Below, one piece after another: positions 2,778 to 25,328 of a stretch of DNA of 26,892 nucleotides; positions within the stretch are counted from its first letter, which is position 1, and the number at the start of each line of letters is the position of its first letter. The notes beneath the pieces are model-generated. The model had not been told where the DNA came from and searched no databases. It saw only the letters and a list, made by a program, of their open reading frames with translations. Made by a program: the position numbers and the translations under genes. The stretch is taken from the IMG/VR virus record IMGVR_UViG_2534682096_000007; one strand, 5' to 3'. Source of the DNA: a virus. Lineage: Duplodnaviria > Heunggongvirae > Uroviricota > Caudoviricetes.

Positions 2778-2865
2778 ATAGATGTTCGGGCCTTACGCTA
2801 ATGTAACTTCTTTCCTTCTTCGAACCAAACCGTGTACACCATCCGTTATCTGCGGAGGTGAGGCT

Positions 2866-3081
2866 ATGAAATCCATGGATAAGTTAACAACGGGCATCGC
2901 CTACAGCACCTCTGCAGGCAGTGCTGGCTACTGGTTTTTACAGTTGCTCGATAAAGTCACGCCCTCACAGTGGGCGGCAATAGGTGTATTGGGTAGTCTG
3001 GTATTTGGCATGCTGACGTATCTGACAAATCTTTATTTCAAGATTAAAGAAGACAGGCGTAAGGCTGCGAGAGGAGAGTAA
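2866..3081 (+). CDS. class II holin / pinholin of the phage 21 S21 (EssQ/EssD) type, with dual-start motif
   Basis: 71 aa; RBS GGAGGTGAGG 2854-2863. Starts MKSMDK, i.e. Met1-Lys-x-Met4 dual start as in antiholin/holin pairs. Two hydrophobic segments ([19 protein letters not shown]; [21 protein letters not shown]) and charged C-terminus [13 protein letters not shown]. The ORF-track extension back to 2782 is rejected. Confidence 0.9.
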
Positions 3082-3085
3082 TCCA

Positions 3086-3393
3086 ATGACTCAAGACTAT
3101 GAACTGGTTGTGAAAGGAGTCCGTAATTTTGAGAATAAAGTTACGGTAACTGTAGCCTTACAGGACAAAGAACGCTTTGACGGTGAAATTTTTGGCCTGG
3201 ATGTCGCCATGGACCGTGTTGAAGGAGCTGCGCTGGAGTTTTATGAGGCAGCAGCCAGAATGAGCGTCCGGCAAGTCTTCCTGGAAGTAGCAGAAAAATT
3301 GTCAGAAAAAGTTGAGTCTTATCTGCAGCATCAGTACTCCTTTAAGATTGAAAATCCTGCCAATAAGCACGAGCGTCCTCATCATAAATATCT

Positions 3394-3397
<4 letters not shown>
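3086..3397 (+). CDS. ydfR: DUF1327 family protein (YdfR-like) within the lysis cassette
   Basis: 103 aa, placed between holin and endolysin exactly as ydfR sits between essQ and rrrQ in the K-12 Qin prophage. Its stop overlaps the endolysin start (ATGA at 3394-3397). Function unknown. Family call is by size and synteny from memory. Confidence 0.6.
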
Positions 3398-4421
<1,024 letters not shown>

Positions 4422-4785
4422 ATTAATATTAAATCGGATTATTTTTAGCGCTGAATGTGAAATTTAAATAAAAAGGACTCTTCCATGAGTCAAAATCCTT
4501 GAAATCTTAAGGGTAAGATAAAAGGTCATTAGACAGAATGACACGTTTTATTAATAAATAAAGCTATTGTTTCATTCGTGTGTTTTTCTTTACAAAAGTA
4601 ATCCTTGCTATGGTTGGTTAATCATGCGTTAATGGTGTTCTGGTTTGTTACAAAATTATCTGAAGCAGTCATTGTTATAATTTTATTATTTGTACCTCTT
4701 GAGATTTCCTTGTTGGTTTTTCTCTCTGATATTTTTTTTTCGGACCATTCTGCCCAAGGGCTAACTTCTTCAAAAGGTAATAATG
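4422..4785 (+). promoter_or_regulatory. long AT-rich leader and promoter region of the csp gene (cspA-family style 5' UTR)
   Basis: About 360 nt of AT-rich non-coding DNA directly upstream of a CspA-family gene; cspA-family genes are known to have long structured 5' UTRs. Promoter and cold-box elements are not mapped, so exact boundaries are unknown. Confidence 0.35.
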
Positions 4786-4998
4786 ATGTCTAACAAAATG
4801 ACTGGTTTAGTGAAATGGTTTAACCCTGAAAAAGGTTTTGGTTTCATCACGCCGAAAGATGGTAGCAAAGATGTGTTTGTGCATTTCTCAGCTATTCAGA
4901 GCAACGATTTCAAAACGTTAACTGAGAATCAGGAAGTCGAATTTGGTATTGAGAACGGACCTAAAGGCCCTGCAGCTGTTCATGTAGTGGCACTTTGA
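4786..4998 (+). CDS. CspA-family cold-shock protein (CspB/CspI-like, prophage-borne)
   Basis: 70 aa [42 protein letters not shown]... with RNP1-like KGFGFI and RNP2-like VFVHF motifs. AAGG 4774-4777 upstream. An extra in-frame ATG lies at 4783. Confidence 0.92.
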
Positions 4999-5202
4999 GG
5001 TAGAAAATATTACAAACCATATTCACTTTAGATGCCCGTGTTGCCATGGTTCTCAGTATAGAACATCATCTTTTGATGTTTCTGACAGAAATCCTTTCGG
5101 GGCAAAATGTATCTTTTGTAAATCAATGATGATTACATTTGATAATATTTCACAATACTTAAATGTTAGCCATCTGTCGTTAGATTTAAGAAAGTGAAAA
5201 TG

Positions 5203-6348: not shown

Positions 6349-6710
6349 TCACCATAACTGCTAACCATTCTGACCATTTCACAAGTGACAGAGTCAATAT
6401 CGTATTCTGTCACTGTAAGGCTAATACAGTACTGCAATTCAACTACAGCAATGCCTCGTATTTAGGTGAATTTACAATATCGTCCAGTTCGGATGCCGGC
6501 TGCATTTCTGAAGATAAGGCATTTCGGTTCGCGTATTTTCCCCTCATGCTCGTCAGTCCTGCGCGTAGTAAGAAACAGGACACTCACACTAATTTGTGTG
6601 GGCATGCTGTGATGTCCTTCTGAATTATCCCCATGCCATTATGTAACGCTCTGTTTCAGATGCTCGTCACGGTTGTCAGGCTGTCGGGTCCTCCCAGTGG
6701 GGGTCCCTGC

Positions 6711-6797
6711 CACGGGGCGGGAGCGTCGCGGAAAAAGGCTAGTTTTTGAAATTTTATTCGTCATCACCACTACTGTAATTGATTGATATTACAGTGG
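6711..6797 (+). other. putative cos site (cosN-like cleavage region plus downstream terminase-binding region) with a flanking inverted repeat
   Basis: CACGGGGCGGGAGCGTCGCGG (about 6711-6731) resembles the lambda cohesive-end region (ACGGGGCGGCGACCTCGCGGG as I recall it). Downstream TTCGTCATCAC resembles lambda TTCGTCATAAC. An 8-bp inverted repeat ACTGTAAT-N8-ATTACAGT lies at about 6766-6796. Located about 100-190 nt upstream of terS, the normal position of cos for a GpA-type terminase. Confidence 0.45.
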
Positions 6798-6900
6798 TTT
6801 TATTTTTATGGTGTCGATTCTGATTGTTTTTTGTTCATCACTAACACCGTTTGCCTAAAGTTGTTCGCAAGATGCATGTTTAAAACATTCTGGAGCGGGT

Positions 6901-7395
6901 ATGGATCGAGAGTTAAAAAATCTGACGCTGAATATCAGTCAACTGGCGGCATTGTCAGGTGTACATCGCCAGACTGCTGCGGCAAGGCTGCAAAATCTAC
7001 CCGTTGCAGGGGGGCATGAAAGCAACCTCAAGCTTTATCGGGTGGTTGATATTGTGTCGGCATTTCTGGCATTACCACCGCCGGTTGCAGAAGGCGAAAT
7101 GGACGCGCATGAGCGCAAAGCCTGGTATCAGTCTGAACGTGAGCGTCTTAAGTTCGAACAGGAAACGGCACAACTCATTCCGGCCAGTGATGTCAGACGG
7201 GAGTTTGCCATCTGGGCAAAAGCGGTCGTGCAGGTGCTGGAGACATTACCGGATATTCTTGAACGTGACTGCGGTCTGCAGCCTGCCGCTGTGAGCCGTG
7301 TTCAGTCCATTATTGATGATCTGCGCGATCAGATAGCCCTGCGGGTGACTGAAGCAGGTGCGGATGATGAGGAGGAATTACAGCAGGAGGAGTAA
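6901..7395 (+). CDS. terminase small subunit (DNA-packaging protein, HTH-containing)
   Basis: 164 aa. Lies immediately upstream of the large terminase, with its stop overlapping the TerL start (TAATG at 7393-7397). N-terminal HTH-like segment NISQLAALSGVHRQTAAARL and acidic C-terminus. GGAG 6892-6895 upstream. Confidence 0.7.
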   Translation: MDRELKNLTLNISQLAALSGVHRQTAAARLQNLPVAGGHESNLKLYRVVDIVSAFLALPPPVAEGEMDAHERKAWYQSERERLKFEQETAQLIPASDVRREFAIWAKAVVQVLETLPDILERDCGLQPAAVSRVQSIIDDLRDQIALRVTEAGADDEEELQQEE

Positions 7396-9497
7396 TGCTG
7401 AATCAGGAAACCGCAAAGGCAGCACGAACCGATTCAGGTTATATCCTTCGCGCACCGAGTCGAATGCGGGTTGCTGATGCCGTTGCTCAGTATATGCGGG
7501 TGCCTATGGGGGCAGGGAACTCAGTCCCGTGGGATCCGCTGGTGGCACCGTATGTTATTGAGCCTATGAACTGCCTGGCCTCGCGTGAATACGACGCAGT
7601 GATATTTGTTGGCCCGGCACGAACCGGCAAGACTATCGGCCTGATTGACGGCTGGGTGATTTACAACGTGATTTGCGATCCTGCTGATATGCTGATCATT
7701 CAGATGACGGAGGAAAAAGCCCGCGAACACTCCAAAAAACGACTCGCCAGAACGTTTCGCGTCAGCCCGGAAGTGGTCAGTCGCCTGAGTCCGAACAAAA
7801 ATGACAACAACGTTTATGACAGAACATTCCTTGCTGGCAACTACCTGAAAATCGGCTGGCCGTCAGTCAATATCATGTCTTCATCAGATTATAAATGCGT
7901 GGCGCTGACGGATTATGACCGTTTTCCGGAAGATATTGATGGTGAGGGGGATGCCTTCTCTCTTGCCTCAAAACGTACCACCACATTTATGTCCAGTGGT
8001 ATGACGCTGGTGGAGAGTTCCCCCGGCAGGGATGTGAAGGATGTGAAATGGCGACGGACTTCACCGCATGAGGCTCCACCAACCACGGGGATCCTGTCGC
8101 TCTATAACCGTGGCGATCGCCGTCGCTGGTACTGGCCCTGTCCACACTGTGGTGAGTATTTTCAGCCCTGCGGCGATGTGGTTGCTGGTTTCCGTGATAT
8201 TGCCGATCCTGTGCTGGCAAGTGAGGCGGCTTATATTCAGTGTCCTTCCTGTTCAGGACGGATTTTGCCTGAACAAAAACGCGAGCTGAACGGACGTGGG
8301 GTCTGGTTACGGGATGGTGAATCCATCAATGCAGATGGCAGTCGTTATGGTGATCCCCGGCGTTCACGTATTGCGTCATTCTGGATGGAGGGTCCGGCAG
8401 CTGCTTATCAGACACTCTCGCAACTCGTTTACAAACTGCTTACTGCAGAACAGGAATACGAGACAACCGGAAGTGAAGAGACACTCAAGACGGTTATCAA
8501 TACCGACTGGGGATTACCTTATCTTCCCCGCGCCAGCATGGAGCAACGAAAAAGTGAATTGCTTGAGCAGCGGGCAGAGCCAGTTCCTTCCCGCAGTGTG
8601 CCGGATGGCGTTAATTTCCTTGTGGCGACAGTGGATGTGCAGGCGGGACGTCATCGCCGTTTTGTGGTTCAGGTAACGGGCTATGGCAGCCGTGGCGAAC
8701 GCTGGATTATTGATCGTTACAACATCACGCAGTCATTGCGCGGTGACAGCGACGGGGAGAGCCAGCGAATTGATCCGGCCAGCTATCCGGAAGACTGGGA
8801 TGTCCTGCTGACGGATGTTTTTCATAAAAGCTGGCCGCTGGCCTCCGATCCTTCTCAACAAATGCGACTGATGGCAATGGCGGTGGACTCCGGCGGTGAA
8901 GACGGGGTCACTGATAATGCCTATAAATTCTGGCGTCGTTGCCGTCGTGATGGCCTTGGTAAACGTATTTACCTGTTTAAGGGTGACAGCATCCGGCGCG
9001 CAAAACTGATCAGCCGTACATTCCCTGATAACACCGGACGAACGGGCCGCCGGGCGCAGGCCGCAGGTGATGTGCCGCTCTGGCTTCTTCAGACGGATGC
9101 CCTGAAAGACCGGGTGAATAACGCGTTATGGCGTGACTCGCCAGGTCCCGGCTATGTGCATTTCCCTGACTGGCTGGGGAGCTGGTTTTACGACGAACTG
9201 ACGTATGAAGAGCGGAGCAGTGACGGGAAATGGAGTAAGCCGGGTCGCGGTGCCAACGAAGCTTTTGACCTGATGGTGTATGCCGAGGCTCTGGTCATTC
9301 TGCATGGATACGAAAAGATCCGCTGGCCGGATGCACCGGAGTGGGCGAGCCGGGAAACCTGGCTGGAGTGTGTCCCGGACAGTACCGAACCGTCACCCAC
9401 ACCGGAACCGGTATCCACGCCTGTTAAAAAACAAAAACGGAAGAAAACAGTAACTGACGATGTTAACCCCTGGCTGACTTCCGGAGGATGGTTATGA
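7395..9497 (+). CDS. terminase large subunit, lambda GpA family
   Basis: 700 aa. Walker A P-loop VGPARTGKT near the N-terminus; size and architecture of GpA-type terminases; followed by gpW-like and portal genes. RBS AGGAGGAG 7385-7391. Confidence 0.9.
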   Translation: MLNQETAKAARTDSGYILRAPSRMRVADAVAQYMRVPMGAGNSVPWDPLVAPYVIEPMNCLASREYDAVIFVGPARTGKTIGLIDGWVIYNVICDPADMLIIQMTEEKAREHSKKRLARTFRVSPEVVSRLSPNKNDNNVYDRTFLAGNYLKIGWPSVNIMSSSDYKCVALTDYDRFPEDIDGEGDAFSLASKRTTTFMSSGMTLVESSPGRDVKDVKWRRTSPHEAPPTTGILSLYNRGDRRRWYWPCPHCGEYFQPCGDVVAGFRDIADPVLASEAAYIQCPSCSGRILPEQKRELNGRGVWLRDGESINADGSRYGDPRRSRIASFWMEGPAAAYQTLSQLVYKLLTAEQEYETTGSEETLKTVINTDWGLPYLPRASMEQRKSELLEQRAEPVPSRSVPDGVNFLVATVDVQAGRHRRFVVQVTGYGSRGERWIIDRYNITQSLRGDSDGESQRIDPASYPEDWDVLLTDVFHKSWPLASDPSQQMRLMAMAVDSGGEDGVTDNAYKFWRRCRRDGLGKRIYLFKGDSIRRAKLISRTFPDNTGRTGRRAQAAGDVPLWLLQTDALKDRVNNALWRDSPGPGYVHFPDWLGSWFYDELTYEERSSDGKWSKPGRGANEAFDLMVYAEALVILHGYEKIRWPDAPEWASRETWLECVPDSTEPSPTPEPVSTPVKKQKRKKTVTDDVNPWLTSGGWL

Positions 9498-9706
9498 ACC
9501 AGAATGATATCGAAGCCATGATTCAGCGTTATACGGAAGCTGAAATGGCGGTGCTGGACGGAAAATCCGTCACCTTTAATGGTCAGCAGATGACCATGGA
9601 AAACTTATCTGAGATCCGGCAGGGACGGCAGGAGTGGGAGCGCCGCCTTGCGGCTCTGATTACACGACGACGGGGGCATCCCGGGTACCGGCTGGCGAGG
9701 TTCTGA
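9494..9706 (+). CDS. head-tail joining protein, gpW-like
   Basis: About 70 aa ending ...ITRRRGHPGYRLARF, resembling the lambda gpW C-terminus (...RRRGPAGFYV as I recall it). GGAGG 9483-9487 precedes ATG 9494; an alternative ATG lies at 9488. Stop overlaps the portal start. Confidence 0.75.
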   Translation: MNQNDIEAMIQRYTEAEMAVLDGKSVTFNGQQMTMENLSEIRQGRQEWERRLAALITRRRGHPGYRLARF

Positions 9707-11214
9707 TGGCAATTCTTGATGATGTGATTGGCGTTTTTTCACCAGGATGGAAAGCGGCAAGGCTGCGTTCCCGTGCGGTGATCCAGGCTTATGAGGCCGT
9801 AAAAACGACACGGACACACAAAGCCCGGCGGGAAAACCGAACTGCCGACCAGTTAAGCCAGTACGGGGCCGTGTCGTTACGTGAGCAGGCCCGTTACCTT
9901 GATAACAACCACGATCTGGTTATTGGTGTATTTGACAAGCTGGAAGAACGGGTGGTGGGGAAAAACGGGATTATTGTCGAGCCACATCCGGTATTACGCA
10001 ATGGGGCCATTGCCCGTGATCTGGCAGCGGAGATACGCACCCGATGGAGTGAATGGTCTGTCAGTCCGGAAGTCACCGGGCAGTTTACCCGTCCGATGCT
10101 GGAACGTCTGATGCTGCGTACCTGGCTGCGCGATGGTGAGGTGTTTGCCCAGATGGTTTCCGGGCGCATAAACAGCCTGACGCCTTCTGCCGGTGTTCAT
10201 TTCTGGCTGGAGGCGCTCGAGCCGGACTTTATTCCCATGACCAGTGATGAGAGCAACAGGCTGAATCAGGGCGTGTTTGTTGATGACTGGGGGCGTCCCG
10301 AAAAATATCTGGTGTATAAAAGCCGTCCCGTATCCGGGCGGCAGATGGAAACCAAAGAAGTGGATGCAGAGCGAATGCTGCATCTTAAATTTGTTCGCCG
10401 TCTGCACCAGATGCGCGGGACGTCTTTGTTGTCCGGTGTGCTGATCCGCCTCAGTGCCCTGAAAGAGTATGAAGATTCTGAGCTGACTGCAGCAAGGATC
10501 GCCGCTGCTCTGGGGATGTACATCCGGAAAGGCGACGGGCAGAGCTATGAACCGGATGGTAATGACAGCAAGGAGAATGAACGCGAGCTTACCATTCAGC
10601 CAGGCATTATTTACGACGATCTGAAACCCGGCGAAGAAATCGGAATGGTGAAGTCGGATCGTCCCAATCCTAACCTTGAAACTTTTCGTAATGGTCAGTT
10701 GCGTGCCGTGGCGGCGGGCAGTCGTCTGAGTTTTTCCAGTACGGCACGCAACTATAACGGCACTTACAGCGCCCAGCGTCAGGAGCTGGTTGAATCCACT
10801 GATGGCTACCTGATCCTGCAGGACTGGTTTATTGGTGCCGTCACCCGCCCGATGTATCGTGCCTGGCTGAAACAGGCTGTGGCATCCGGTGTTATCAGGC
10901 TACCCCGCGATCTTGATCGTTCTTCACTGTATACCGCGGTGTATTCCGGACCGGTGATGCCGTGGATTGACCCTGTTAAGGAGGCTGAGGCCTGGAAAAT
11001 TCAGATTCGTGGTGGAGCGGCGACAGAATCAGACTGGGTACGTGCAGGTGGTCGTAATCCGGATGATGTCAAACGTCGGCGCAAGGCCGAAATTGATGAA
11101 AACCGCAAGCTGGATCTGGTATTTGATACCGATCCGGCCAGTGATAAAGGAGGCAGCAGTGCCGCAACGAAACGACAGGAGCCGCAGCACACCGACGACC
11201 AGTCCGAAGAATAA
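9706..11214 (+). CDS. portal protein (lambda gpB-like)
   Basis: 502 aa starting at ATG 9706, which overlaps the gpW stop (TGATG). Size and position are typical for a portal between gpW and the head protease. The upstream extension to 9634 in the ORF track is rejected. Confidence 0.85.
   Translation: MAILDDVIGVFSPGWKAARLRSRAVIQAYEAVKTTRTHKARRENRTADQLSQYGAVSLREQARYLDNNHDLVIGVFDKLEERVVGKNGIIVEPHPVLRNGAIARDLAAEIRTRWSEWSVSPEVTGQFTRPMLERLMLRTWLRDGEVFAQMVSGRINSLTPSAGVHFWLEALEPDFIPMTSDESNRLNQGVFVDDWGRPEKYLVYKSRPVSGRQMETKEVDAERMLHLKFVRRLHQMRGTSLLSGVLIRLSALKEYEDSELTAARIAAALGMYIRKGDGQSYEPDGNDSKENERELTIQPGIIYDDLKPGEEIGMVKSDRPNPNLETFRNGQLRAVAAGSRLSFSSTARNYNGTYSAQRQELVESTDGYLILQDWFIGAVTRPMYRAWLKQAVASGVIRLPRDLDRSSLYTAVYSGPVMPWIDPVKEAEAWKIQIRGGAATESDWVRAGGRNPDDVKRRRKAEIDENRKLDLVFDTDPASDKGGSSAATKRQEPQHTDDQSEE

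Positions 11215-21844: not shown

Positions 21845-25328
<3,484 letters not shown>

Follow-up and report, generated by a model that had tools for sequence, protein, structure and literature searches.

Does the DNA just upstream of terS, the small terminase gene of this prophage, hold a lambda-type cos site? If it does, where would the DNA be cut, and which parts of the site would the terminase read? A preliminary description of the stretch analysed here (26,892 nucleotides, hereafter the window) had proposed a lambda-like cos at this place, and all of the strings that it quoted are found in the window. Our comparative analysis supports the proposal. With a probability of roughly 0.92, positions 6686-6845 are the lambda-type cos site of an mEp460-type lambdoid prophage, arranged in the order cosQ-cosN-cosB, where we infer cutting and binding from sequence comparison. 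The site is an ordinary, expected DNA-packaging feature of a lambda-like E. coli prophage, and it is well conserved. The proposal is borne out by cosQ, the CG flanks of cosN, the left half of the 12-mer between them and about 28 bp of right flank that align with lambda, and is also backed by the gpA-family terL, the lambda-family portal and the ends of two deposited phage genomes (cdtI and Tritos). Table 1 lists the features.

Table 1. Features of the cos region and the terminase genes (window positions; bp are counted from the nick)
Feature	Position	Strand	Sequence or product	Basis
cosQ, packaging-termination signal	6686-6692	+	GGGTCCT	identical to the 7-bp lambda cosQ
cosN	6713-6728	+	CG-GGGCGGGAGCGT-CG	aligns with lambda CG-GGGCGGCGACCT-CG
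Conserved right flank of cosN	6727-6754; right end about 6748	+	CGCGGAAAAAGGCTAGTTTTTGAAATTT	spacer from cosN to R3
R3-like TerS site (candidate)	6759-6770 (bp 45-56)	+	CGTCATCACCAC; core TCATCAC at 6761-6767 (bp 47-53)	footprint, position
Inverted repeat	6769-6779 and 6788-6798		ACTACTGTAAT-N8-ATTACAGTGGT	11-nt arms, 91% complementary, 8-nt spacer
I1-like IHF core (candidate)	6776-6788 (bp 62-74)	-	TATCAATCAATTA; fits WATCAANNNNTTR	perfect consensus match
R2-like TerS site (candidate)	6811-6819 (bp 97-105)	-	plus strand GTGTCGATT; minus-strand core TCGACAC at 6811-6817 (bp 97-103)	footprint
R1-like TerS site (candidate)	6835-6841 (bp 121-127)	+	TCATCAC, same heptamer as R3	footprint
terS	6901-7395	+	small terminase subunit, 164 aa	Pfam DUF1441 2.7e-41; PHROG 141 'terminase small subunit' 7e-74
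terL	7395-9497	+	large terminase subunit, cosN-nicking nuclease and packaging ATPase	Pfam GpA_ATPase 1.6e-71, GpA_nuclease 1.1e-85

The prophage and its terminase

Judged by sequence, the window is a prophage of the type represented by the isolated coliphages mEp460, Ayreon and phi458. TerS is 99-100%, TerL 99-99.7% (99.7% for mEp460) and the cos-region DNA 86-98% identical between these phages and the window. In the deposited records of these phages the genome is opened a short way upstream of terS, and cos is left unannotated; the Ayreon paper goes no further than to expect cos in the 1 kb or so that precedes terS (PMC5764929).

The Pfam matches place a gpA-type large subunit next to the site, as in lambda, and the portal gene downstream is of the lambda family. 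Because TerL is gpA-type, HK97-type cos sites (3' overhangs, unrelated terminase) were left out of the alignments. The small subunit is where the two systems differ: lambda TerS belongs to the Nu1 family, whereas the Pfam search of the window TerS matched DUF1441 only, with no match to the Nu1 family. A profile comparison aligned residues 10-52 with lambda Nu1 3-47 (E 1.2e-3, at a probability of only 19%), and a profile search of solved structures gave only a marginal helix-turn-helix match (2eby, E 0.026). For an AlphaFold model of the protein (pLDDT 75), Foldseek returned 6hn7_B as the top PDB match followed by MerR-type winged-helix domains, all of them weak (E about 0.1). Taken from sequence and model, these matches hint weakly at a Nu1-like DNA-binding domain. 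TerS is expected to carry an N-terminal winged helix-turn-helix and to read cosB.

cosQ, cosN and the predicted cohesive ends

Two sets of relatives were compared. The footprint set comprises 74 distinct upstream sequences, all with identical TerS, and the wider set about 35 loci with TerS 31-100% identical, including 20 more distant enterobacterial loci. For the comparison with lambda, the ends of linear records were joined and the alignment was anchored on the nick.

The cosQ heptamer is present as a single copy in the whole window (both strands), 22 nt left of the top-strand nick versus 23 nt in lambda. It is kept in 73 of the 74 footprint sequences, and cosQ is described as invariant in nature (PMC4669245). 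The DNA to its left is hypervariable in the same set, and matches to E. coli genomes break at about 6685.

The cosN-like string quoted in the preliminary description, CACGGGGCGGGAGCGTCGCGG, lies at 6711-6731. The 12-mer within it is related to the cohesive end of lambda, with which it agrees at 8 of 12 positions. It departs from lambda at bp 7, 8, 9 and 11 only; bp 1-6 and the CG on either side are shared. A lambda-derived pattern, ACGGGGCGG-N6-CGCGG, has one match on the two strands of the window even when 2 mismatches are allowed. At that tolerance 0.28 matches are expected and at least one turned up in 26 of 100 shuffles, which makes the pattern a weak test alone. The window match is exact, however, and by our own calculation an exact 14-base match in 54 kb is expected about 2e-4 times, so the proposed resemblance to cosN stands far above chance. 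Among the footprint sequences the CG-12-mer-CG arrangement is conserved in 70 of 74, the other four having a single right-hand CG change or, in one, an insertion. Within cosN, relatives with identical TerS differ at bp 7, 11 and 12 only. Bp 7-12 of cosN are known to be variable and tolerant of mutation, and the CG flanks to be conserved (PMC4669245, PMC9026076).

We predict a top-strand nick at 6714/6715 and a bottom-strand nick at 6726/6727, which would leave a 12-nt 5' cohesive end (6715-6726). The virion ends would then read 5'-GGGCGGGAGCGTCGCGG... on the left and ...CCTGCCACG on the right. A full-text literature search for GGGCGGGAGCGT had an unrelated mammalian paper as its sole match. 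One record, mEp460_4F5, has 3 bases missing inside cosN (GGGCGGGAGCG-CGG); this gap is a probable assembly artefact at the cohesive end, and the record was left out of the analysis.

The flank to the right of cosN is near-invariant across the 74 footprint sequences and recognizable in Enterobacterales and Halomonadaceae loci as well as in lambda (CGCGGGTTTTCGCTATTTATGAAAATTT). We infer that it is probably the seat of TerL during bottom-strand nicking. In the ungapped, nick-anchored comparison, 26 of the first 40 bases (bp 1-40) are the same in window and lambda, and the flank is homologous to about bp 40. Identity is about 25% further right, with no DNA similarity to lambda detectable past bp 40 by this comparison. 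When 6680-6760 was the query of a sensitive blastn search of phage records, lambda, N15 and phi80 were not among the matches, because the sequence in common is short and interrupted by the ends of these linear records.

Ends of deposited genomes

The predicted nicks coincide with the edges of several deposited genomes. The GenBank records of cdtI (AB285204) and Tritos (OV696610) both open with GGGCGGGAGCGTCGCGGAAAAAGGCTAGTTTTT, the 33 bases of window 6715-6747, and finish with ...CCACG, at the equivalent of window 6714. The paper on Tritos (PMC9928086) is silent on genome ends. The linear record of Hafnia phage yong2 finishes with its 12-mer and starts with CGCGG, a break equivalent to 6726/6727. 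In LLS, bases 1-12 (GGGCGGCGCGCT, homologous to the window 12-mer) are annotated as the 5' cohesive site. Cr-LKS3, from the same TerS family, is reported to have 5' cohesive ends starting with GGGC (PMC9303873). The shared edges of the cdtI, Tritos, LLS and yong2 records are indirect evidence, read from sequence, for 12-nt 5' ends at the window site.

The cdtI and Tritos genomes also show how far the similarity extends. They share with the window cosQ, the 12-mer and the next 21 bases, and the cdtI TerL is 87.5% identical over residues 21-700. They differ in TerS (41.7% identical) and in everything to the right of 6747, where the cosB DNA is unrelated; the first 20 TerL residues lie outside the alignment. 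About 6748 is a mosaic joint: these two phages diverge from the window there, and many E. coli genome matches end at 6748.

These comparisons bear on packaging specificity. It had been suggested that the departures from the cohesive end of lambda imply a different specificity. That reasoning fails, since the departures sit in the variable, mutation-tolerant half of cosN and the determinants of specificity are TerS and cosB (PMC4669245). For example, cdtI and Tritos have exactly the same cosN as the window, yet their packaging specificity is probably different because TerS and cosB are unlike those of the window. The specificity of the window very probably does differ from that of lambda, for the same reason: TerS and cosB differ, rather than cosN.

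Candidate TerS and IHF sites in cosB

The cosB of lambda runs R3-I1-R2-R1, its R2 being inverted (PMC4669245, PMC9026076), and the IHF site I1 lies between R3 and R2 (PMC4669245). At the level of sequence the window has the same layout: a direct R3-like element, an IHF site, an inverted R2-like element and a direct R1-like element. The footprint of 74 sequences picks out as conserved exactly cosQ, cosN and its right flank, then R3, those IHF-core positions that the consensus specifies, R2 and R1, whereas the DNA left of cosQ, the spacer between cosQ and cosN and the NNNN positions of the IHF consensus vary freely. Across the wider set of about 35 loci, layout and spacings stay the same and the R motif shifts with TerS lineage.

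The R3-like candidate sits at the position of lambda R3, which spans bp 50-65 (PMC9026076), and its TCATCAC core is conserved among the identical-TerS sequences. An element that bears a repeat is present at this distance in all related loci, with a sequence that varies by TerS lineage (CATCATCAT, GTGCAGCAGCA and TCGGCAGCAGCACC, with GTCAGCACTGAA in Gifsy-2). Enterobacterial relatives have, at the R2 place, a GTCGA block with a lineage-specific motif before it; in Gifsy-2 the inverted copy at this place, TTCGACACTGAA, matches R1 exactly. At the R1 place relatives carry a direct copy of the R motif of their own lineage, usually abutting the terS start codon. The heptamer TCRWCAC covers 3 sites within 81 bp of cosB, as a motif that was defined after seeing these sites. 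It shows no enrichment over the 26.9 kb of the window (20 found, 16 expected). Between the R1-like site and terS, the 55 bp at 6846-6900 are also conserved.

The putative IHF site has the expected sequence features, including an A/T tract (6798-6808) 5' of the core on the minus strand. Perfect consensus matches number 2 in the whole window against 1.04 expected. The 13-bp core is found in 12 versions among the 74 sequences; the consensus positions are kept in these, and variation is high at the NNNN positions, chiefly 6780-6781. The best consensus match between cosN and terS lies at bp 62-64, in the same orientation, in 15 of the 20 enterobacterial loci.

The array differs from that of lambda in several ways. 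The lambda R motif is CGTTTCC(T/G)TTCT, as opposed to the TCRWCAC-like motif of the window. The centres of R3 and R2 are 50 bp apart (56 bp in lambda) and those of R2 and R1 24 bp (46 bp in lambda), which makes the window array more compact. It also differs from N15, whose simple cosB lacks an IHF site and has one critical R3, with a remote rR2 located within terS (PMC4669245); the cosB of the window is complex, with three R sites. In mEp213, mEp043, LLS and Gifsy-2 the TerS proteins are of the DUF1441 family (47-57% identical to the window TerS) and the architecture is that of the window. Gifsy-2 in particular has clear R repeats of the TTCGACACTGAA type in the order R3, IHF site, inverted R2, R1 (PMC12315714). 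LLS has CATCATCAT as its R motif, and Gifsy-2 has CGACACTGAA. In these four, R1 abuts the terS start codon and cosN is about 130 bp from the ATG, versus 186 bp in the window.

A disused relic?

A homologous site could nonetheless be out of use. That is, the window might hold a cos relic in a decaying prophage, which nothing in this genome cuts or packages any longer. The tail-tip J gene (21845-25328) is broken up into three reading frames, and J genes of intact phages align over 3480 nt versus 3484 nt here, which indicates either a defective prophage or sequencing errors. Because J is broken, the prophage may no longer make infectious particles even with cos intact. A broken J would not stop cleavage at cos, however, and O157 prophages that are defective but retain an intact cos and terminase are nonetheless packaged with the aid of co-resident prophages (PMC2669165). 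In the window, terS is 100% and terL 99.7% identical to the genes of plaque-forming phages (mEp460, Ayreon, phi458), and every cos subsite has the majority form among the 74 relatives. We consider a relic improbable, at odds of the order of one in twenty.

The inverted repeat and a chance resemblance

A similarly small probability attaches to the idea that the principal functional element here is the inverted repeat (6769-6798), either as a palindromic operator for a TerS dimer or as a stem-loop terminator of the late transcript before terS. The repeat is slightly longer than the 8-bp version reported earlier, encloses the IHF core and occupies the place where lambda has R3 and I1. In favour of the idea, its arms are long and nearly complementary, most close relatives keep 7 or all 8 of the core pairs, and a terminator scan flags the repeat, which is followed by a T-rich run. 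Its conservation pattern argues otherwise. In the footprint set, the 36-nt repeat stretch has 43 distinct versions, of which about 14 have the 8-bp core altered on one side only, without compensation on the other; arm changes are never compensated. The repeat is lost in one locus whose TerS is 100% identical (L009), and is absent from more distant relatives (L011-L016) and other groups that retain R3, the IHF core and R2. As an operator it was rejected on this lack of conservation, and as an intrinsic terminator on the same losses and on the stem, in which only 3 of 11 pairs are G-C. The T-run is in keeping with the A/T tract that strong IHF cores have on their 5' side. With 19 bp between their centres, the arms fall inside a typical IHF footprint, which is about 35 bp. 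The earlier proposal that the repeat is a TerS or IHF element thus survives in one part, the conserved IHF consensus core inside it, and not in the other; by sequence conservation, the repeat itself is probably not a functional element.

The second string singled out earlier, TTCGTCATCAC at 6757-6767 (bp 43-53), was taken to resemble TTCGTCATAAC of lambda cosB. The lambda string lies at bp 67-77, so the distances from the nick differ, and a 10/11 match is reached in 94 of 300 shuffles. We rejected TTCGTCATCAC as a homologue of lambda cosB, the match being at chance level and not positionally homologous. Coincidentally, the string overlaps the R3-type TerS site that the comparative data mark.

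That chance-level match is a point in favour of a wholly fortuitous resemblance to lambda cos, with packaging by headful (pac) or from some other site; this reading is refuted for practical purposes, given an exact and uniquely placed cosQ and cosN at lambda-like spacing (whose joint occurrence by chance is very unlikely), a gpA-family TerL, deposited phage genome ends that coincide with the site and an architecture conserved across about 35 divergent loci.

Proposed mechanism and modularity

By homology with lambda, a lambda-type cos at this place would work as follows. The winged-helix N-terminal domains of TerS would bind the R3-like and inverted R2-like cores on concatemeric DNA, which an IHF-induced bend at the I1-like core would bring together, with the R1-like site in an accessory role. 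Bound TerS would anchor the gpA-type TerL over cosN, and TerL would nick the two strands at the predicted positions to release the 12-nt 5' ends. Packaging would run rightward through terS, and the next cos would be cut once cosQ is reached. Specificity would reside in the TerS-cosB pair. cosQ, cosN and 22 bp of right flank form a shared module, which is also present in phages with another TerS and cosB (cdtI, Tritos).

These observations can be combined into a broader reading, which we put forward tentatively and rate at somewhat worse than even odds. It holds that 6686-6747 may be a universal module common to phages of differing packaging specificity, and that the DNA from about 6748 through cosB and terS to the first 60 or so nucleotides of terL may be an exchangeable specificity cassette. 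The near-invariant flank of 22-28 bp could then have a dual role, as a docking surface for TerL and as the recombination joint for swaps of TerS-cosB among lambdoid phages. In the same reading, the DUF1441 proteins would form a second major branch among TerS proteins of the Nu1-like kind, reading a compact R3-IHF-R2-R1 array through the heptamer TCRWCAY. The last positions of the heptamer would set specificity, with CAC in the mEp460 type and CAT in the mEp213/LLS type.

Implications for annotation

The main value of the analysis is correct annotation; the understanding of lambda-type packaging is unchanged. Exact predicted nick positions allow genomes of mEp460-type phages to be properly oriented and virion ends to be predicted, and make it possible to assess which prophages could have their DNA packaged by the terminases of others. 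In addition, the comparative data assign a likely Nu1-like small terminase role to Pfam DUF1441 and yield testable TerS recognition motifs for several lineages. Of 5426 complete E. coli genomes, 2113 contain sequence that matches the cos region. The site is unannotated in all E. coli genome rows among the matches listed, and almost all of the matching phage records either leave it unannotated or have a 'hypothetical protein' ORF drawn over it.

A lambda-type cos site upstream of terS

The window comes from a lambdoid E. coli prophage and comprises its late region; the site upstream of its small terminase gene (terS) is a genuine lambda-type cos of a known class, as the preliminary description had proposed. 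For comparison, the right end of the lambda record was joined to its left end and the alignment was anchored on the nick; positions given as bp are counted rightward from the predicted top-strand nick. From left to right, the window reads GTC-GGGTCCT-CCCAGTGGGGGTCCCTGCCACG/GGGCGGGAGCGT/CGCGGAAAAAGGCTAGTTTTTGAAATTTT and lambda reads TAC-GGGTCCT-TTCCGGTGATCCGACAGGTTACG/GGGCGGCGACCT/CGCGGGTTTTCGCTATTTATGAAAATTTT (slashes mark nick positions). The 7-bp cosQ (the packaging-termination signal), the CG dinucleotides at both nick positions and bp 1-6 of the 12-mer at cosN (the nick site) are the same in both, whereas the 12-mers have four differences (bp 7, 8, 9 and 11) and the distance from cosQ to the nick is 22 nt in the window versus 23 nt in lambda. 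GGGTCCT is present in a single copy in the 26.9-kb window, both strands counted, and the lambda-derived pattern ACGGGGCGG-N6-CGCGG also occurs once. Ungapped identity to lambda is 26/40 over bp 1-40 and about 25% further right.

Every string quoted in the preliminary description is found in the window. However, the likeness it saw between TTCGTCATCAC and lambda TTCGTCATAAC does not withstand testing: 94 of 300 shuffles reach a 10-of-11 match of the two cosB regions (the TerS-binding side), and the distances from the nick differ (bp 43-53 in the window, bp 67-77 in lambda).

Features of the window (coordinates are positions in the window)
Feature	Position	Remark
2-thiouracil desulfurase/DUF1722 protein and AraC-type regulator	596-1555 and 1953-2675	cargo, upstream of lysis cassette
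Holin, endolysin, Rz genes	2782-4421
cspA thermoregulator RNA	4627-5044	full-length; Rfam RF01766, 109 bits
Cold-shock protein gene	4783-4998
Small accessory genes		~2.4 kb between lysis genes and terS
cosN-like string of the preliminary description	6711-6731	CACGGGGCGGGAGCGTCGCGG
cosB-side string of the preliminary description	6757-6767	TTCGTCATCAC
Conserved island	6759-6770	CGTCATCAC(CAC)
Inverted repeat, 11-nt arms	6769-6779 and 6788-6798
Conserved island	6776-6788	specified positions of TAAnnnnTTGATA
A/T tract	6798-6808	5' of predicted IHF core, on the minus strand
Conserved island	6811-6819	GTGTCGATT
Conserved island	6834-6841	TTCATCAC
terS	6901-7395	Pfam DUF1441; PHROG 141 'terminase small subunit'
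terL	7395-9497	gpA-type
Portal gene	9634-11214	lambda family
Fused ClpP-protease/capsid gene, then lambda-type tail genes		3' of portal gene
Tail-tip gene J	21845-25328	three frames: 21845-23494, 23513-24418, 24378-25328

Genome ends in deposited records

The cosQ-cosN part of the site is already in GenBank, as the termini of phages cdtI and Tritos. The cdtI record (AB285204) begins at base 1 with GGGCGGGAGCGTCGCGGAAAAAGGCTAGTTTTT, the same as window 6715-6747, and ends in ...GGCCTGCCACG; the linear Tritos record (OV696610) has the same 12-mer at its start and ...CCCCTGCCACG at its end, the latter corresponding to window 6714. In Hafnia phage yong2, whose TerL is 71% identical to that of the window, the linear record ends in CCGAG+GGGGCAGCGACA and starts with CGCGGGAAACGG, so this record opens at the opposite edge of the homologous 12-mer. 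The record ends of these three phages are strong pointers to the nick positions, short of proof. Bases 1-12 of the LLS record (GGGCGGCGCGCT) are annotated as a 5' single-stranded cohesive site, which its authors inferred from TerL type and mEp213 (PMC12315714), and cyanophage Cr-LKS3, with a TerS of the same family, is reported to have 5' cohesive ends starting GGGC and flanked by lambda-like bases (PMC9303873). No cos is annotated in the mEp460-type phage records among the matches listed; the Ayreon authors expected one within ~1 kb upstream of terS and gave no exact position (PMC5764929).

Conservation among relatives with the same TerS

Eighty IMG/VR contigs and three genome contigs with TerS 99-100% identical to the window's gave, together with the window, 74 distinct 260-bp upstream sequences. 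Left of 6686 the DNA is hypervariable, yet GGGTCCT is present in 73/74. The spacer from cosQ to cosN is freely variable, cosN keeps its CG flanks in 70/74 and itself varies at bp 7, 11 and 12 only, and 6727-6754 shows nearly no variation; conserved islands follow (see table). The predicted IHF core (minus strand TATCAATCAATTA, a perfect fit to WATCAANNNNTTR) has 12 versions of its 13 bp, with the middle two N positions (6780-6781) highly variable. Conserved specified positions and variable N positions are the pattern that an IHF site would be expected to leave. Perfect consensus matches number 2 in the window, with 1.04 expected.

Two length variants of cosN were seen: three bases are missing from mEp460_4F5 (GGGCGGGAGCG-CGG; LR595868.1 bases 1-30), and four are duplicated in one IMG/VR contig (GGGCGGGCGGGAGCGG). 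Faulty assembly at cohesive ends is the probable cause of both, though they could be real variants of overhang length.

The preliminary description had also suggested that an inverted repeat here is a binding element. The repeat exists, and the IHF core sits inside it, but the repeat itself is judged not to be the functional unit. The 36-nt stretch containing it has 43 distinct versions among the 74 sequences, and in about 14 of these the 8-bp core is altered on one side with no compensating change on the other; the repeat is lost in one locus (L009) despite an identical TerS, and the next-nearest groups lack it yet retain R3, IHF core and R2. A terminator scan flagged the repeat with its T-run; the stem has just 3 G-C pairs, and the IHF site's A/T tract accounts better for the T-run.

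Layout of cosB across lineages

A TerS-alignment scan with one genome per species gave 42 loci from Enterobacterales, Halomonadaceae, Marinobacter and other Gammaproteobacteria, and ~35 of them share one nick-anchored order. That is, cosQ (GGGTCCT, or GGTACTCC in some loci) is followed by a spacer of ~22 nt, CCACG or CCGAG, the 12-mer, CGCGG, GAAAAnGGCTAGTTTTT, a motif at bp 45-60, the same motif in inverted form once or twice to its right and, in enterobacterial loci, a direct copy right before the terS start codon. The motif varies by TerS lineage. The best IHF-consensus match between cosN and terS lies at bp 62-64, in one orientation, in 15/20 enterobacterial loci.

The bp 45-60 motif by TerS lineage
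Lineage	Motif	Inverted copy
mEp460 type and nearest groups	(T)CATCACCAC	GGTGTCGA
mEp213/LLS/Citrobacter type	CATCATCAT	ATGATGTCGA
Phytobacter/Kosakonia type	GTGCAGCAGCA	GCTG
Halomonadaceae	TCGGCAGCAGCACC	GGTGCCGA
Gifsy-2	TTCGACACTGAA, plus GTCAGCACTGAA	one, matching a direct copy exactly

Lambda cosB has the order R3, I1, inverted R2, R1 (PMC4669245, PMC9026076), where the R sites bind TerS and I1 binds IHF. The predicted cosB of the window follows the same plan, with R3 at bp 47-53 (bp 50-65 in lambda) and an R3-to-R2 spacing of 50 bp rather than 56 bp. By homology, TerS dimers would sit on R3 and R2, on either side of an IHF bend, and place TerL to nick the top strand at 6714/6715 and the bottom strand at 6726/6727. 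This would yield 12-nt 5' ends, GGGCGGGAGCGT, with packaging proceeding rightward and stopping at the next cosQ-cosN. What the data establish directly is homology to lambda, conservation, and agreement with the ends of deposited genomes; nicking, the polarity and length of the overhang, and binding of TerS and IHF are inferred.

The ~55 bp that separate the R1-like site from the terS start codon (6846-6900) are highly conserved, contain an ATGCAT-centred palindrome and are found only in the mEp460-type group and one further locus (L011). In the remaining lineages the ATG comes directly after R1, and cosN-to-ATG is ~130-138 bp versus 186 bp in the window. In addition, each of the CATCATCAT-group prophages of Citrobacter, Enterobacter and Escherichia (L019-L031) has an inverted repeat at ~bp 75-105, in the interval from the IHF core to the R2-like site, which it adjoins. 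Pairing is kept while the sequence varies (TCGTGAA/TTCACGA, CATTGAAA/TTTCAATG, CTTGA/TCAAG), and this repeat may be a structural feature of cosB.

Small terminase

Pfam labels the terS family DUF1441, 'unknown function'. Residues 10-52 of the N-terminus (LNISQLAALSGVHRQTAAARL...GGHESNLKLY) align with residues 3-47 of the lambda Nu1 winged helix-turn-helix (E 1.2e-3, probability 19%). The best PDB match of the AlphaFold model (pLDDT 75) is 6hn7_B, from a study of TerS hijacking in phi80-type phages, followed by MerR-type winged-helix DNA-binding domains, all with E ~0.1. These matches are consistent with a protein working like Nu1, and are too weak to prove Nu1 family membership. Four features indicate that the DUF1441 protein is the small terminase subunit: where its gene lies, its match to PHROG 141, an N-terminal winged helix resembling that of Nu1, and co-variation of the upstream repeats.

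Mosaic structure and packaging specificity

From cosQ to 6747, cdtI and Tritos are the same as the window. Further right their cosB is unrelated to the window's, their TerS is 41.7% identical, and TerL identity is 87.5% from residue 21 on, the alignment leaving out the first 20 residues. Therefore, cosQ, cosN and its right flank form a shared module, and cosB moves as a unit with terS and the 5' end of terL. This agrees with published work, which places specificity in TerS and cosB and describes the right half of cosN as tolerant of change (PMC4669245). Taken together, these points do not support reading the cosN differences as a sign of a new packaging specificity, as had been suggested. The specificity of the window phage very likely differs from lambda's.

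Of 5426 complete E. coli genomes, 2113 contain a match to 6600-6900, with boundaries clustering at ~6685 and ~6748. Both boundaries are sharp; the first falls immediately to the left of cosQ and the second 22 bp to the right of cosN. The phages cdtI, Tritos and HannyBb, as well as many E. coli genomes, have in common with the window only the stretch up to 6748; other genomes match from 6685 rightward only, across cos and cosB.

Prophage setting

Identity to the isolated coliphages mEp460, Ayreon and phi458 is 99-100% for TerS and 99-99.7% for TerL, and the prophage is therefore of the mEp460 type. Gene J is split, with a seemingly out-of-frame stretch at ~23430-23500; the intact J of related phages aligns over 3480 nt versus 3484 nt in the window. 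This points to a defective prophage or to indel errors in the assembly. The cspA thermoregulator RNA, ahead of the cold-shock protein gene, is further cargo, placed between the lysis genes and cos.
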